Origin: a virus
Taxonomy: Duplodnaviria > Caudoviricetes
DNA: 64,000 nucleotides
Reading direction: 5' to 3' (one strand)
Virus record (IMG/VR): IMGVR_UViG_3300021387_000688
The position numbers and the translations under genes are program-made. Of the stretch, positions 8,122-63,723 are shown one piece after another; positions within the stretch are counted from its first letter, which is position 1; each line of letters begins with the position of its first letter. The notes under the pieces were generated by a model that was not told where the DNA came from, searched no databases, and saw only the letters and a program-made list of their open reading frames with translations.

Positions 8122-8835
8122 TTAGATTGAATTGATCAAACTGAACAATTCTGCTCTAGCTTCTGGCTGAGTTTCAAATACCCCGCGAAGTACTGAAGTT
8201 GTAGTTGTAGCATCTTCAGATTTAACACCACGAACTGCTACGCAGCTATGAGTAATATCTTTCATTACTACTGCACATCCTACTGGGTCCAATACATCTA
8301 CCATTGCATCTGCAATCTGTTCACTCAATTGTTCCTGAATCTGGAAACGATGTGCATAATCTCTTGCCATGCGAGGAATCTTTGACAATCCACATACTTT
8401 GTCTTTTGGAATATAAGCTACATAAACAAATGAATCATCTTTATATGTTCCAAACGGTGCAATATGATGTTCACATTGTGAGAATAACTTAAACTTGCAA
8501 ATAACAATACCATTCTGGAAGTAAGATGTTTTCTGTACTCCAGTCTTTTCTCCATTAATGGCATTACCGCGTTCAACGTCAAATACTTTTTTGATATGAC
8601 GTTTTGGATCTACCATGTATCCTGATGCAAATGCTTCAGTCCAATACTTTGCAAGACGATGAGGAGTTTCTTTCATTCCATCTGGAAGCTCTTCTTCATC
8701 TGTAAGTCCCATTGTTTTTTTAAGAAGATGTGCAAACATTGCTTCATCTTCTTTGTTAAAAATGTTTTTGATTTCTACCTCAGATTCGGTAGTTTCATAG
8801 ACAGGCTGTCCGCCTTTGTAATTAATGTGTTTCAT
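8122..8835 (-). CDS. folE: GTP cyclohydrolase I
   Basis: Motifs ETPHR, SQCEHH..PF, GLSKIPR, R.QIQE.L..QIA, H.C...RGV, T.T..LRG.F; AAGGAG RBS. Confidence 0.95.
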   Translation of the reverse strand: MKHINYKGGQPVYETTESEVEIKNIFNKEDEAMFAHLLKKTMGLTDEEELPDGMKETPHRLAKYWTEAFASGYMVDPKRHIKKVFDVERGNAINGEKTGVQKTSYFQNGIVICKFKLFSQCEHHIAPFGTYKDDSFVYVAYIPKDKVCGLSKIPRMARDYAHRFQIQEQLSEQIADAMVDVLDPVGCAVVMKDITHSCVAVRGVKSEDATTTTSVLRGVFETQPEARAELFSLINSI

Positions 8836-13654: not shown

Positions 13655-14320
13655 CTAACAACGATTTGCAACTACTTCACTATCTTCAGCGATAGCTGTC
13701 TGTCCACTATAATTAACATCAATAAAACTTGTACTGCGTCTCAGGTCTTCTGAAAAGATGTTAATTTCTGCCATTGCGGCTTCGTAATCTGCATAAGCGT
13801 CTCCGGTAACTCCGAAGTTGTATTCCTTCAGCAGATTTCTAAAATCATTTAAGAAATTCTTAGCCTTTTCCTTAAACATTTCGTCGTAACGGATCTGCTG
13901 GAAGTGCTCCTTAACAGGTTCTGTACTGAAATCCTTTGCAGTGTACTTACGAGCTGATTCCTTAGTGATACCTAACTTGCGGTTAACCCAAGCGGCCATC
14001 TTTCCAGCTTCGTGAGTAAAGAATTCTCCAAACTCTGCTCTTGATTCATCGTTTACAGAATAGCTCTTGTAAATCTCTACAAATTCGTTTTCAATGAAAA
14101 TGAACTTTACGTAAGCATCGATCTTAATACGCTTACCGTTTGTAGCACTGCAGTTAAAATTCAAATACCAACTTGTATCGTAATTTGTCATACAATACTC
14201 GTTCAGTTCATTCTTATATTTTTCAATGATTTCCTTCTTAGAGCAAGAAAAGATACGAGTAGTTCCTGGCTTAGAAATATCCACGCGATTGTCGATTACT
14301 AAAAATTCCTGATTTTCCAT
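13655..14320 (-). CDS. Hypothetical early protein (start revised to 14320, MENQEF)
   Basis: RBS GAGGTACAAATTATG; the promoter at 14341-14378 lies inside the longer listed ORF. Confidence 0.75.
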   Translation of the reverse strand: MENQEFLVIDNRVDISKPGTTRIFSCSKKEIIEKYKNELNEYCMTNYDTSWYLNFNCSATNGKRIKIDAYVKFIFIENEFVEIYKSYSVNDESRAEFGEFFTHEAGKMAAWVNRKLGITKESARKYTAKDFSTEPVKEHFQQIRYDEMFKEKAKNFLNDFRNLLKEYNFGVTGDAYADYEAAMAEINIFSEDLRRSTSFIDVNYSGQTAIAEDSEVVANRC

Positions 14321-14340
14321 AATTTGTACCTCTTGATAAT

Positions 14341-14906: not shown

Positions 14907-15197
14907 TTAAAGTGTATTTAAAAACTTTTCAAGTTTTTTGTTGCCTTTACGATTTGCTTCTTCTACTGAAGAGCATCTATATGTGTTAAGTGATTTGCTC
15001 CAAATTCCGCCGAACTGTCCATGTCGTCCAGATCCGTGAATTGTTATATGTGAAAAGTATGTATCATCCCAAGCTTTTCCTTCGTAGCGTTCAATCTGAA
15101 CAACGTCTCCATTACGCATAGTTTTGTAGCAGATATAGTTCGAGTTGTTAGGGTTCTTTCCTTCATTTGAGATGATTTCGATTTCGCCTTCTTTCAT
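14907..15197 (-). CDS. Hypothetical early protein
   Basis: 96-aa ORF; RBS GAGGTACAAA; TATAAT promoter upstream. Confidence 0.75.
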   Translation of the reverse strand: MKEGEIEIISNEGKNPNNSNYICYKTMRNGDVVQIERYEGKAWDDTYFSHITIHGSGRHGQFGGIWSKSLNTYRCSSVEEANRKGNKKLEKFLNTL

Positions 15198-15277
15198 TCT
15201 TTGTACCTCTTGATAATATTATAGCTTTTTCTGGATTCCAAGATAACTAAAATGTTTACTTTTTCTATACTTTTTTT

Positions 15278-17171: not shown

Positions 17172-17193
17172 AGGGGAGGTAAAATCCTCCCCT
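17172..17193 (-). terminator. Hairpin between flaB and flaA overlapping a TATATT -10 for flaA
   Basis: On the minus strand AGGGGAGG-atttta-CCTCCCCT runs directly into TATATT. Confidence 0.55.
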
Positions 17194-21948: not shown

Positions 21949-22205
21949 TATTTCTTACTCCTTTTTTCTTTGATTGTTCCGTATTTATGTTTACCATTGT
22001 TCCAGTCATCATACAACTCTTTTGGAGTAGCATCTACGTCTATTTTGAAAACTTCTGGAGCTGGACCTTCTTTGAAAGAAAGTTTAACATAATCACTGCC
22101 GCCGTCAATTGCTACGTTTTGACAACTACACCAATGCATATCATGACGAGATCTTGAATAAATTGTGTCTCCGCACTTTGGGCATTTAATTGCATTTACT
22201 TTCAT
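21948..22205 (-). CDS. Small zinc-ribbon protein
   Basis: CPKCGD..YS....D...CSC....IDGG motif common in phage ORFs. Confidence 0.75.
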   Translation of the reverse strand: MKVNAIKCPKCGDTIYSRSRHDMHWCSCQNVAIDGGSDYVKLSFKEGPAPEVFKIDVDATPKELYDDWNNGKHKYGTIKEKRSKK

Positions 22206-22241
22206 TTTCGCTACCTTCCTTCATATTAATATAGAAGTTAA

Positions 22242-22508
22242 TTATTTGAATATTTCTTCTAAAGCTTCTTTATGTTCTTTCCAAAATTTATCTTCTTGTT
22301 CATTATACTTTTCTAAGGCTTGACGGTCAATTTCTTCAAGTTCTTTTAATCTTCTTTTGATATAAGCTTTAGTTCTTTTACAACCGTAAGTTCCATCTGC
22401 ATATTCAGTTCCAGGGTCTCTTTCTCCTGTAATGTTGCAAAAGATATCATCTGAATAACCATCCGGATCATAACAAACATGTAAGGCCGGGCATACTTCA
22501 CATCTCAT
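22242..22508 (-). CDS. Small Cys-containing hypothetical protein
   Basis: 88 aa, CxxC, GGAG RBS. Confidence 0.7.
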   Translation of the reverse strand: MRCEVCPALHVCYDPDGYSDDIFCNITGERDPGTEYADGTYGCKRTKAYIKRRLKELEEIDRQALEKYNEQEDKFWKEHKEALEEIFK

Positions 22509-22520
22509 AATTTCTCCAAT

Positions 22521-22617
22521 AAAAAAGGTCCTAGAATTTCTCCTAGGACCCTAAGGGAGGTACAAAACCTACATCTCCGAAGGAGTTCGTTGTAGATAAG
22601 ATCTACCGTTTTAGAAT
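22521..22617 (-). ncRNA. Candidate ~97-nt small RNA with an anti-Shine-Dalgarno motif
   Basis: Own TATAAT (22624-22629) and upstream TTTAGAAA box, internal hairpins, UUUUGUACCUCCC, then terminator GGUCCUAG-N8-CUAGGACC-UUUUUU; no credible ORF. Confidence 0.6.
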
Positions 22618-22651
22618 ATTCTTATTATAGAATATGCTCCCTTGTCCTTTT

Positions 22652-22930
22652 CTAAAGATCGAGTAATTCTTTAACTCTCTCTGTTACATAAAATCTTTTC
22701 TTTGAGTTTGGACCAGGCTGAGTGATGATGTATAGTTCACCATCTTTCTCTTTAATCAAACCTGTAGTAGTTGGAATACACTGACAGGTTGGTACCCATT
22801 TATTGTCCCCACTCAAATCTTTAGAATCCATGTCCATTACATAATCTACGTAGTGTGGCGTGTTCTGGACGGCAATGTGTGCTTCAGTAAGTTTGGTAAG
22901 CATCGCATCTGTAAATTCTCTAACTTCCAT
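22652..22930 (-). CDS. Hypothetical early protein
   Basis: 92 aa, GGAGG RBS, early-type promoter at about 22955-22990. Confidence 0.75.
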   Translation of the reverse strand: MEVREFTDAMLTKLTEAHIAVQNTPHYVDYVMDMDSKDLSGDNKWVPTCQCIPTTTGLIKEKDGELYIITQPGPNSKKRFYVTERVKELLDL

Positions 22931-36819: not shown

Positions 36820-37173
36820 TTAGCAAGATGCTTTCCAAGTTTCCTGTGCACGGTAACCAGAACCTGCATTGATATCGCGGCCATATTTCATAACCTGATA
36901 TTCATAACCTTTAAGAGCATCATCCTTAAGGTGAAGTTTCTTGCGCTGTTCTGAGAAGTAAATATCTTCTGGAGTTTCAGTACCAGCTTCTTTTGCAATT
37001 ACTTTTGTACCGTCTCTCAAAGTATATTCACCTGGGCCCCATCCACCAAGTGCTGGATCGATGCGCCAACCCCAACGACGAATGATTGATTTCAACTGAC
37101 CCTCAGTTGGATATGGTATACCATCTTCTGTGTACTGAATTTCTTCCTGAACCTGTGAATTTGCCTTTGACAT
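36820..37173 (-). CDS. Hypothetical early protein
   Basis: 117 aa; RBS GAGGTACAAATTATG; early-type promoter at about 37216-37250. Confidence 0.8.
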   Translation of the reverse strand: MSKANSQVQEEIQYTEDGIPYPTEGQLKSIIRRWGWRIDPALGGWGPGEYTLRDGTKVIAKEAGTETPEDIYFSEQRKKLHLKDDALKGYEYQVMKYGRDINAGSGYRAQETWKASC

Positions 37174-37327
37174 AATTTGTACCTCGTGTTATATTAAGTT
37201 ATAATTTATGATTATAATATAGCTAAACTTTGGGACAATTTTTCGAAAATGTTTGAAAAAGTTACCAAATCTATATTAAAAATGGAACCCACTACTAATT
37301 TGAAAATAAAAGGAGTTATTACATATA

Positions 37328-60650: not shown

Positions 60651-60728
60651 GATAATCTTATTTAGTTTTCCTTAAAATCTGAATATCAATATAGAAAAAG
60701 AAACGGGATGGGAATTAAAAATGGCAAT

Positions 60729-60755
60729 AAAAAAGGCCTATACAACGTATAGGCC
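60729..60755 (-). terminator. Terminator of the topoisomerase gene
   Basis: GGCCUAUAC-guu-GUAUAGGCC-UUUUUU. Confidence 0.85.
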
Positions 60756-60774
60756 CGGAGGTACAAATTATAAC

Positions 60775-62475
60775 TTATTTGAACAATTTTTCAAACTGTT
60801 CCATCTGAGTTTTGCTATAAATTCTTTCAAGTGGCATATCGATTTTACGACACCACTTAGATACGATAGCTGGATCGATATAAGCACCTTTTGAAGTAGA
60901 TGCTGTAAAGTTCTGAGTCTTTTCTTTCTGAGAAAGATTCATTTTTGCAATATCGTACTTCTGCTTTGTATTTTCATTCTGTTCCTGAAGTTTCTTAACC
61001 TTATCTTTCCAACCTTCTTTCTTTGCAGCTTTCAAAGCTTTAATCTTAGCTTCGCGTTTTGCAATTGTTTCTTCAACTTTTGCTTCACGTTCTTTAAGAC
61101 TTTCTTCCTTCTCGGCAAACTTTGCTTTACGCTTTTCTTCTGCAACTTTGTTAACACCGCGCTGATGATTCAGTCTCTTTGCAACTTCCATATTTGCTTC
61201 TTCAAATGCAAGTTTCTTAAGAGCAATTGGAGAATCCTTAGTTACATGGAACTTCTTAACAGCTTCTTCCAATGCATTTGTCATTGTATAAGCGGCTACT
61301 GCAGTACGAGCAAGTTTAGGAGAGAAGATTCCGTCAAGCTCAGGTACAATTGCACCTATATAAGCCTTAATATCATTTTTGTCAGTTTTGAGCTGTCCAA
61401 ATTCTTTCCAATGCTCTTCAATTTTAGCAGCAAATTCTGTTTCGATTTCAGATACGTCGTGAACCGAATCCTTTCCAAGGAAGTCAAATTTGATTTTGTT
61501 ACCAGAACGTTTTACATCCTTTCCCCATACAAGTGAAAGAAGTCCTTTTGTTCCATTTGTAGTTGCTTTCTTTTCTCCGATACGGATACCTTTTTCAAAA
61601 AGAAGGAATACAGCAATTACAGTTCCTAAATCCTTTGCTTTCTTAGAATTGAAATCGTTCTTAACAGTTTCAAGAATCTTTCCGTAAGATTCTCCAAGTT
61701 CTGCACCAGCATCGTATTTTTTCATCTGTCCTTCAGTCTTTACAGAAGACTTTGCACTAAACATAATCTTCTTACGAGTTGAAGAATAAACTTTAATCAT
61801 TCCACCTTGAGCGTTTGGTACACCAACGACGCTCGGATAATCTGCACAGTGATGAGATTCTGGACGCCATTCATTATGCCATTTTGATTTTTTAGTTTTT
61901 GGATCAACGTAATTAATTACTTCATCCCCGCTGATCAATACTGGATGCTTTTCTGAATTTGTATTCAATACAACATCTTCTGCGGTTACTGCCATTTTCC
62001 AATAACCTGCATAAGGGCAACCTGGGCGACCTGCGTAAATTCCTTCAGGCTCCAATACCCAAGACTGTAAAGGCTCTTTCTCCCCATCTACTATTGCAAA
62101 GCCATATTTTTCTTTACGAAGCTTGTTTGCTTCTTTAGTTTTTTCTTTTCCTTCTTTATCAGCGTCTTTTGCAGCCTTTACTTCTGCATACCATGCACGC
62201 CATTTTTTGATTTCTGGATCTTCGTTTACAAATGCTGGAAGATTAAGATGTCTAGATTTTGTCAACCAATCAGGTCCACCGGCAGCTTCGATACATTCGA
62301 AAACATGTTTAATCCAATTTTCGTCTTGGAAACAAGGAAGTTCTGGATTCCTTCTACAGAAGTCTCCGAAAATTCTATTATAAAGAAGAGAGCCATCAGC
62401 GAAAGGAGGAACAGGTACGAGACCTGGTACTTCCACTGCTTCAAGTTCCAAAGATTTCATAGGTTCAAGTTTCAT
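60775..62475 (-). CDS. DNA topoisomerase IB, long eukaryote/archaeal type
   Basis: Catalytic pentad contexts GIRIG, FDFLGKD, K.ART, LNHQR and TSKGAYIDP; core motif EPEGIYAGR; coiled-coil linker; IYSKTQ end. Confidence 0.93.
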   Translation of the reverse strand: MKLEPMKSLELEAVEVPGLVPVPPFADGSLLYNRIFGDFCRRNPELPCFQDENWIKHVFECIEAAGGPDWLTKSRHLNLPAFVNEDPEIKKWRAWYAEVKAAKDADKEGKEKTKEANKLRKEKYGFAIVDGEKEPLQSWVLEPEGIYAGRPGCPYAGYWKMAVTAEDVVLNTNSEKHPVLISGDEVINYVDPKTKKSKWHNEWRPESHHCADYPSVVGVPNAQGGMIKVYSSTRKKIMFSAKSSVKTEGQMKKYDAGAELGESYGKILETVKNDFNSKKAKDLGTVIAVFLLFEKGIRIGEKKATTNGTKGLLSLVWGKDVKRSGNKIKFDFLGKDSVHDVSEIETEFAAKIEEHWKEFGQLKTDKNDIKAYIGAIVPELDGIFSPKLARTAVAAYTMTNALEEAVKKFHVTKDSPIALKKLAFEEANMEVAKRLNHQRGVNKVAEEKRKAKFAEKEESLKEREAKVEETIAKREAKIKALKAAKKEGWKDKVKKLQEQNENTKQKYDIAKMNLSQKEKTQNFTASTSKGAYIDPAIVSKWCRKIDMPLERIYSKTQMEQFEKLFK

Positions 62476-62993: not shown

Positions 62994-63683
62994 TTACCCC
63001 CTATATTCAATTCCGGTTGCACCGAACTGGCGATTAAGAGAAATGTTATTTCCCTCTACCATTCCGCTTGTATAAGCAATTGAATCTCTTATAGCTGCTC
63101 CGTTCATTTTATAATCACCAAGTTTGCCATAAGAATTATTAATCCAATTTTCTACTTCATCAAGTGGTACTAAACCCCACTTGTCAGTTTTTGGAGCAGT
63201 TGATTTAATTTCATTGATTTTAGTTCTAACAGAATCTACTACACCAGTACAGTAAGCATTTCTAGAAGAAGGGCAATCTCCAACTCTTCTAGCTTCTTTA
63301 ATAGTTTTGTCACGAATCCAATTATACATCAACTTTGCAGTCAATCTGTTGCCTTCGCGACCAATTACTACAAGATGACATTTCTTATCCCAATAAGTTC
63401 CCAAACCAGATCTTAATACTTTACAATCGAACAACTTACTGATGGATACAAAAAGATTGATTTCCCATTTACGATACTGTTTTTTATCTTCGTCCAATGT
63501 TTCTTGATCCAAGCAACCCAAGATTTCGTCTCTTGAATATTTCTGGACATCTTCCATAGATATTCCGTGCTCGCGCATCAAATCATAAGCTCTTTTTAAA
63601 GCTGTTTCTGCTTCGCCAGCATAATCAGTACCGTTTCCAAGATTTATAAGTTTTTCAATTTTCGAAAGTAATTTGTCATCCAT
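62994..63683 (-). CDS. DUF2786-type protein
   Basis: KIEKL..L......EA..A...A..LM..HGI N-terminus; G...G..I.L C-terminus. Confidence 0.8.
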   Translation of the reverse strand: MDDKLLSKIEKLINLGNGTDYAGEAETALKRAYDLMREHGISMEDVQKYSRDEILGCLDQETLDEDKKQYRKWEINLFVSISKLFDCKVLRSGLGTYWDKKCHLVVIGREGNRLTAKLMYNWIRDKTIKEARRVGDCPSSRNAYCTGVVDSVRTKINEIKSTAPKTDKWGLVPLDEVENWINNSYGKLGDYKMNGAAIRDSIAYTSGMVEGNNISLNRQFGATGIEYRG

Positions 63684-63685
63684 GT

Positions 63686-63723
63686 TAATAATATAGCTTA
63701 AACCCGGAAACTGAATTTCTAAA
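63686..63723 (-). promoter_or_regulatory. Early-type promoter, near-duplicate of 14341-14378
   Basis: TTTAGAAATtcagTTTCCGGGTTTAAGCTATATTATTA, with ATG 6 nt after the -10. Confidence 0.75.

Follow-up and report, generated by a model that had tools for sequence, protein, structure and literature searches.

We analyzed an intergenic unit on the minus strand of a 64,000-nt stretch of phage DNA (hereafter, the window). The unit, referred to below as the 22.5-kb RNA, lies between a gene encoding a 92-aa protein (22930..22652) and one encoding an 88-aa protein (start 22508). Its features are, in 5' to 3' order:

22649..22656, minus strand: upstream promoter box TTTAGAAA, overlapping the stop codon of the 92-aa gene
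22637..22643, minus strand: Shine–Dalgarno (SD)-like AAGGGAG in the promoter spacer, complementary to CUCCCUU of the RNA
22624..22629, minus strand: –10 box TATAAT, separated from TTTAGAAA by a 19-nt spacer
22521..22617, minus strand: predicted small RNA of ∼97 nt, ORF-free
22592..22606, minus strand: hairpin 1, GUAGAU-cuu-AUCUAC, with an AACGAA stretch next to it
22575..22585, minus strand: hairpin 2, CUCC-uuc-GGAG, with invariant flanks
22552..22575, minus strand: 24-nt core, which holds the seed UUUGUACCUCC at 22566–22556
22555..22567, minus strand: exposed stretch UUUUGUACCUCCC, directly preceding the terminator stem
22519..22552, minus strand: intrinsic terminator, a 12-pair stem (22552–22525) plus T run, –17.8 kcal/mol

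Promoter box, TATAAT, hairpins, exposed stretch and terminator are all found on the minus strand where a sequence-only reading of this DNA had placed them. Its description of ∼97 nt free of ORFs holds as well: no ORF of ≥20 aa occurs on either strand between 22509 and 22651. The 5' end of the RNA, predicted to lie near 22617, is A-rich, and the ATG within the unit is followed immediately by TAG, in the window and in the related phage L012 alike. A non-coding sequence that ends in an intrinsic terminator, as seen here, is one of the marks by which sRNAs are recognized. Directly after the T run comes the ribosome-binding site (RBS) of the 88-aa gene. The sequence-only reading had raised the objection that the motif might instead serve as RBS of a plus-strand ORF. 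We looked for such an ORF and found none that fits. No start codon is suitably spaced from GGGAGGT, and the frame comprises 8 codons in the window versus 18 in L012, so this candidate was rejected.

The promoter follows a recurrent layout, box-N19/20-TATAxT, which also precedes genes 14320, 15197, 37173, 22930 and 63683. A scan with the sigma-70 consensus did not call it (22624–22656), because a TTGACA-like –35 box is absent. At another early-type promoter (63683–63723, minus strand), the –10 box ends 6 nt from the ATG of a 229-aa gene, so that message is probably leaderless or nearly so.

Two alternative hairpins had been proposed from the sequence alone. GUAGAU/AUCUAC is indeed part of the conserved fold, whereas the long AUCUACA/UGUAGGU form, which is the minimum free energy fold of the window sequence, is not kept by relatives. 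The conserved fold consists of hairpin 1, hairpin 2, a single-stranded core and the terminator, with the core predicted to be mostly unpaired. The seed is thus conserved, accessible in the predicted fold and complementary to translation start regions (see below), again as expected of an sRNA. At gathering scores, Rfam gave no match in the whole 64-kb window, the phage c4 RNA family included.

The phage that carries this RNA is an uncultured giant phage from sheep rumen, with a genome of roughly 400 kb (∼398 kb). Metagenomes of animal guts contain the window sequence as well, on contigs as long as 397,621 bp. The window has a G+C content of 33%, and its genes include those for a family-A DNA polymerase, a 3289-aa protein, a flagellin and a eukaryote-type topoisomerase IB. 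The phage is probably a lytic giant phage; searches of the INPHARED phage collection with the window gave no match, for DNA and protein alike. The flagellin (283 aa; PF00669 and PF00700; 17242–18093, minus strand) is kept in all strain contigs. The topoisomerase IB gene (60775–62475, minus strand; PF01028, PF02919 and PF14370), unusual in a phage, has an early-type promoter in front of it. A GTP cyclohydrolase I gene lies at 8122–8835. Outside the window, 2.5–5.7 kb before its start and just upstream of the 3289-aa gene, is an NAD-salvage cluster (NAPRTase, NUDIX, isochorismatase-like and NAD synthase genes; L022:6060–9261).

To assess how the 22.5-kb unit has been conserved, we compared strains and relatives. 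Ten strain copies are 100% identical over 170 nt, with flanks that are 95–98.5% identical. In L011 (∼5% coding divergence), a 115-nt tract reaching from the stop codon as far as the terminator loop is unchanged, and the same is true of a divergent strain in RNA run X2; in both cases, differences are confined to the terminator loop and tail. In L012 and L013, where the neighboring 92-aa protein is 74% identical to the window version, both promoter boxes and their spacing are kept although 5 spacer positions differ. TATAAT is invariant in L011, L012 and L013, and AAGGGAG persists in L012 despite variable spacer positions flanking it. Hairpin 1 reads ACAAAC-gaaa-GUUUGU in L012/L013 and, in a third version, GCCUU-uuu-AAGGC in L019, a distant phage whose 328-aa neighbor protein is only 38% identical. 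All three versions stand directly 5' of an invariant AACGAAC; they are unrelated in sequence, each being self-complementary. The stem of hairpin 2 is retained in L012 and L019 with a variable loop, and a C-to-U change in L019 gives a U–G pair that is workable on the minus strand only. Terminator stem GGUCCUAG/CUAGGACC of the window becomes GGACCUAG/CUAGGUCC in L012/L013, through compensatory changes. The 24-nt core is identical in the window, L011, L012 and L013, and its first 21 nt (through UUUUGUACCUCC) also occur in L019. Kept promoter boxes, rewritten self-complementary stems and an invariant single strand make up the pattern of an RNA gene. This comparison of sequences supports the view that the 22.5-kb unit is a genuine conserved non-coding RNA gene.

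Genomic context in the relatives suggests that the RNA is autonomous and not the leader of the 88-aa gene. In L012, ∼35 nt with their own TATAAT separate the terminator from the next gene. In L019 (11860–12095, plus strand), the element is part of a tRNA array, in the order tRNA-like sequence, seed unit, seedless unit with terminator, tRNA-Glu; this tandem suggests release by tRNA-processing enzymes. The 88-aa protein has no relative in IMG/VR, and homologues of it and of a 147-aa protein were found only in near-identical strains. An extra ORF of 135–147 aa lies between the 88-aa gene and a DUF7695 gene in L003, L004, L007 and L008, and is missing from the window strain (22205–22242). A search of IMG/VR with the hairpin-2 pattern gave no copy, and the 18-nt core, compared with IMG/VR and JGI metagenome contigs, gave only chance matches in unrelated GC-rich DNA.

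Evidence at the RNA level comes from contigs assembled in four gut metatranscriptome studies. In three of these, the contig over the 92-aa gene breaks off inside AAGGGAG (at 22641, 22639 or 22637), upstream of the –10 box, and does not reach the terminator. In the fourth, which represents a divergent strain, a contig covers 22449–22768 at a depth of 73, versus 5–15 for neighboring contigs. None of the assembled contigs in the four studies begins near 22617, and no discrete ∼100-nt transcript is found among them. Contigs of run X1 leave 22594–22640 and 22516–22542 bare, and those of X3/X6 most of the stretch, although holes of this kind prove nothing. An opposite-strand joint in X1 (22515/22593, depth 2.3) is apparently an artefact of the library or of assembly. 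In read-through transcripts of both the window phage and L012, AAGGGAG is predicted to pair with 22561–22555 (CUCCCUU, beside the terminator). These data show that the region is present in RNA libraries, in which DNA carry-over is possible, and give a hint of an RNA discontinuity at 22637–22641; processing or cleavage at AAGGGAG (22637–22643) is speculation. The RNA had been proposed to stand alone. It may not do so strictly: one RNA contig bridges the 92-aa gene, the RNA unit, the terminator and the 88-aa gene.

We then considered which messages the seed could recognize. In the window, the motif GAGGTACAAA is found 5 times against 0.16 expected, a number reached in 0 of 100 shuffles. Counted by orientation, three copies are the RBSs of minus-strand genes (starting at 14320, 15197 and 37173) and two are antisense, one in the 22.5-kb RNA and one at 60758–60767. 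The core is the exact complement of the GAGGUACAAA leaders. That the exposed stretch exactly complements the RBSs of these three genes, as first noticed from the sequence alone, proved to be specific: a 10-nt perfect complement of the seed is present in only 3 of 66 gene start regions in the window, and the next best is 7 nt. Targets were ranked by counts of exact complements; ranking every possible start with RNAduplex gave too much noise to be useful. A one-mismatch match to the motif at 17175–17184 was also inspected and is merely the stem of a hairpin. The candidate targets in the window are:

14320..14332, minus strand: candidate target leader GAGGUACAAAuuAUG of a 221-aa gene, 8 nt past an early-type –10 box
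15197..15209, minus strand: candidate target leader GAGGUACAAAgaAUG of a 96-aa gene
37173..37185, minus strand: candidate target leader GAGGUACAAAuuAUG of a 117-aa gene

These leaders belong to a larger class. GAGGUAC(A/G)A followed by AUG constitutes the SD and spacer of at least seven promoter-proximal small genes without a Pfam family: 14320, 15197 and 37173 in the window and, on sequence upstream of it, 14040 and 14509 in L024 and 4554 and 18276 in L025. An early-type –10 box lies only a few bases upstream of nearly all of these leaders. One leader of this class, preceded by a similar promoter, is present in L019, the sole one seen in 22 kb of that phage, and a further 10 kb of the same phage (L026) contained no additional leaders.

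The seed itself is also repeated. UUUGUACCUCC occurs three times in ∼93 kb of phage sequence, every copy 0–5 nt 5' of a terminator, and has no further occurrence in the same ∼93 kb. None of the remaining 60 of 63 terminator-like sites is preceded by it. The three carriers are the 22.5-kb RNA, the 3'UTR of the topoisomerase IB gene (assigned by PF01028), and a module ∼27 kb upstream of the window. The second of these is placed as follows:

60727..60771, minus strand: second module, AUAAUUUGUACCUCC plus terminator, 3 nt past the topoisomerase IB stop codon

Its parts are the stop codon at 60777–60775, a seed at 60771–60757 and a terminator at 60755–60727, with UUUGUACCUCC at 60766–60756. A seed between a stop codon and the mRNA's own terminator is the layout of a 3'UTR-derived sRNA, and by sequence this module would qualify as one. 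The third module, in strain L025, directly precedes a terminator at the tail of a ∼1.1-kb gene-free region (L025:18345–19420, minus strand) located ∼27 kb before the window start and equipped with two early-type promoters. This region also holds an element that scores as a tRNA (33.6 bits) and is missed by ARAGORN, a hairpin with loop UUAUUACCUCUU and an internal terminator, and an RNA-like stretch of ∼400 nt for which no Rfam match was found.

The 22.5-kb RNA is, then, one of at least three UUUGUACCUCC-plus-terminator modules in one phage. The 11-mer is kept in both sister modules, although neither has the hairpin-2 block. The 11-mer is the only sequence common to all three modules, and is the exact complement of the leader class. 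What the modules have in common is UUUGUA 5' of CCUCC, the same part that the leaders have in common; beyond CCUCC on its 3' side, each module has a different sequence. This argues against the earlier suggestion that ACCUCC mimics the 3' end of 16S rRNA, for which UUA would be needed 3' of CCUCC.

How far the pairing could extend depends on the module. The 22.5-kb RNA can form 9–13 bp with all of the leaders, of which 5 bases are generic SD/anti-SD. The 60.7-kb module offers 14 perfect pairs (15–16 with G–U) to the AAAUUAUG subclass, represented by genes 14320 and 37173, and this pairing spans the SD-to-AUG regions of its matched leaders. The upstream module offers 19 pairs (3 of them G–U) across the SD and AUG of L024:14040. 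When the flanks of the 11-mer were shuffled, P values of 0.036 and 0.002 were obtained for the 60.7-kb and upstream modules, respectively, so both look tuned to particular leaders. For the 22.5-kb RNA, complementarity goes no further beyond the 10–11-nt core than with shuffled flanks (P = 0.80), and we infer that this RNA relies on the shared core alone for pairing. Seed–target covariation is absent for the 22.5-kb RNA; seed and leaders are invariant in every relative found, and hence show co-conservation without covariation. For the sister modules, natural covariation of this sort is only suggested by the sequences. Nine invariant bases 5' of the seed (GAUGUAGGU) have a complement in no leader, and must therefore serve another purpose.

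Because the exposed stretch matches the ribosome-binding leaders of early genes, the RNA probably dampens their translation. The most likely reading, to which we give about an even chance, is that the 22.5-kb RNA acts in trans as an anti-leader sRNA and limits translation of early genes. Transcription from its own promoter would yield an RNA of ∼97 nt; the RNA may also be released from transcripts that run on from the 92-aa early gene upstream. Its seed would pair with the SD and spacer, (G)GAGGUAC(A/G)AA, of the leader cassette shared by at least seven promoter-proximal small genes. Such pairing, if it occurs in vivo, would block 30S binding and possibly trigger cleavage; message stability may also be reduced, the effect presumably being repression rather than protection. 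A leader-defined subset of early genes would in this way be damped while stable RNAs accumulate, and the two sister modules would act beside the 22.5-kb RNA. How this would be timed is a guess, given that the RNA and its presumed targets have similar promoters. More tentatively, and as less likely than not, one may envision an RNA-based shut-off of leader-defined immediate-early genes by one 11-nt seed on three carrier transcripts. The seed would be welded to the terminators of a dedicated sRNA, an mRNA 3'UTR and a tRNA-operon tail, and together the three RNAs would remove messages with the GAGGUAC(A/G)AA leader, by titration or by destruction. If true, this would be an RNA counterpart of T4 RegB/RegA across a clade of uncultured rumen giant phages.

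Other roles for the unit can be weighed against these data. A structural or protein-binding stable RNA, akin to the small stable RNAs in phage tRNA clusters, seems unlikely to us. The invariant 19–24 nt would then be where a protein or the ribosome binds, or would imitate the 3' tail of 16S rRNA, and the match to leaders would be a by-product of SD/anti-SD sequence on both sides. It is true that the invariant block (AACGAACUC..GGAGAUGUAGGU) exceeds the seed and is duplicated by L019 in a unit without one, that two family members adjoin tRNA or tRNA-like genes, and that pairing by the 22.5-kb RNA is not extended beyond the core. But the 11-mer alone is common to the three modules and exactly complements the leader class, and the sequence that a 16S mimic needs 3' of CCUCC differs from module to module. 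Moreover, the sister modules keep the 11-mer without the hairpin-2 block and extend pairing to specific leaders. Quite unlikely, in our estimation, is a cis element of the flanking messages, either a 3'UTR that ends or stabilizes the 92-aa mRNA or a leader/attenuator for the 88-aa gene onward. In its favor, the window's T run and the RBS of the 88-aa gene lie too close together to accommodate a promoter; one RNA contig connects the 92-aa and 88-aa genes across the terminator; and the AAGGGAG/CUCCCUU pairing forms in read-through transcripts of both phages. Such a role fits poorly with L012, where the downstream gene is ∼35 nt off and has its own TATAAT, and with the tRNA array of L019. Fold prediction revealed no antiterminator competing with the terminator, as an attenuator would require, and the 92-aa gene contigs of three studies end at 22637–22641, short of the terminator.

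The element might also function, or have originated, at the level of DNA, with GGAGGTACAAA bound by protein in both orientations, or with the inverted copies being decayed remnants of promoter and leader. The 60.7-kb copy, with 14-nt identity to a leader plus the AU of its start codon, does resemble an inverted leader in which ATG became ATA. We nevertheless consider this very improbable. The 11-mer is perfect in all three inverted copies amid surroundings that all differ, which argues against neutral decay; no inverted copy has a start codon at the right distance; and plus-strand frame lengths differ between the window and L012. The fixed place just 5' of a terminator stem and the U–G pair of hairpin 2, possible on the minus strand only, point to RNA. 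Finally, a 271-nt Rfam search returned, as its best match, a molybdenum-cofactor riboswitch (RF01055; 22493–22629, 21.2 bits, E = 0.007), which would control downstream genes. The match falls short of the gathering score (36), its alignment depends on the terminator hairpin and includes many non-standard pairs, no RF01055 match is seen in L012/L013, and the whole-window scan at gathering scores was empty. The downstream genes have no molybdenum link. With its low score, odd pairs and lack of a match in relatives, this candidate is effectively refuted, and we give it next to no chance.

An anti-leader sRNA of the kind favored here has several partial precedents. The c4 RNA covers a ribosome-binding region and is cut from a precursor by RNase P, and P22 sar and lambda OOP are cis-antisense RNAs. 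Full repression of ant in phage P1 requires c4 RNA (PMC8198154). The likeness to P1/P7 c4, P22 sar and lambda OOP is that of a phage-encoded small RNA that would repress phage genes by pairing with their messages. However, c4 serves the lysogeny decision, where it targets a single operon transcribed from its own promoter; here, several modules are dispersed and the matching leader recurs on many unlinked genes.

Bacterial sRNAs provide further parallels. RsaE/RoxS and RNAIII of Firmicutes are host-encoded RNAs with C-rich seeds, usually in hairpin loops, and regulate metabolic or virulence regulons. Like them, the 22.5-kb RNA has an unpaired C-rich anti-SD seed, predicted to occlude a GGAG-type RBS, and ends in an intrinsic terminator. 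Here, though, the seed is linear and abuts the terminator, and specificity would come from the spacer UACAAA. RNAs of the CpxQ, SdhX and DapZ type derive from 3'UTRs of enterobacterial host genes and depend on Hfq and RNase E. They carry a seed immediately 5' of the mRNA's own terminator, and the 60.7-kb module is arranged exactly so; the difference is that the same seed here sits on three carrier transcripts of one phage.

Among lytic phages, the T4 endoribonuclease RegB cuts within the GGAG of early mRNAs (PMC1702504, PMC3014915). RegB and the repressor RegA resemble the proposed RNA as early phage products that inactivate early phage mRNAs at the SD. Both are proteins, however, and no homology is claimed for the 22.5-kb RNA; the contig ends inside AAGGGAG (22637–22641) are only a loose echo of RegB cutting. 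Short promoter-to-terminator RNAs with unknown targets have been described in the Pseudomonas giant phages 201phi2-1 and phiKZ, some conserved between genera and one beside a tRNA (PMC11512511). The phage studied here is likewise a giant phage, with a predicted short promoter-to-terminator RNA. It differs in the anti-leader seed, none of which is described there, and the INPHARED searches revealed no sequence relation.

To our knowledge, targets have been established for very few of the sRNAs of lytic or giant phages. In this case, the sequence itself nominates a regulon, at least seven early leaders and three matching RNA modules, and so provides a directly testable case of a phage RNA regulating its own early program. 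If true, a minimal seed-plus-terminator on varied carriers would be a compact design principle for RNA regulators, one that may aid annotation of orphan intergenic terminators in uncultured phage genomes. Antisense repression by phages is already known; what appears to be new here, judging from the sequences, is the reuse of one seed on several terminators, matched to a repeated early leader.
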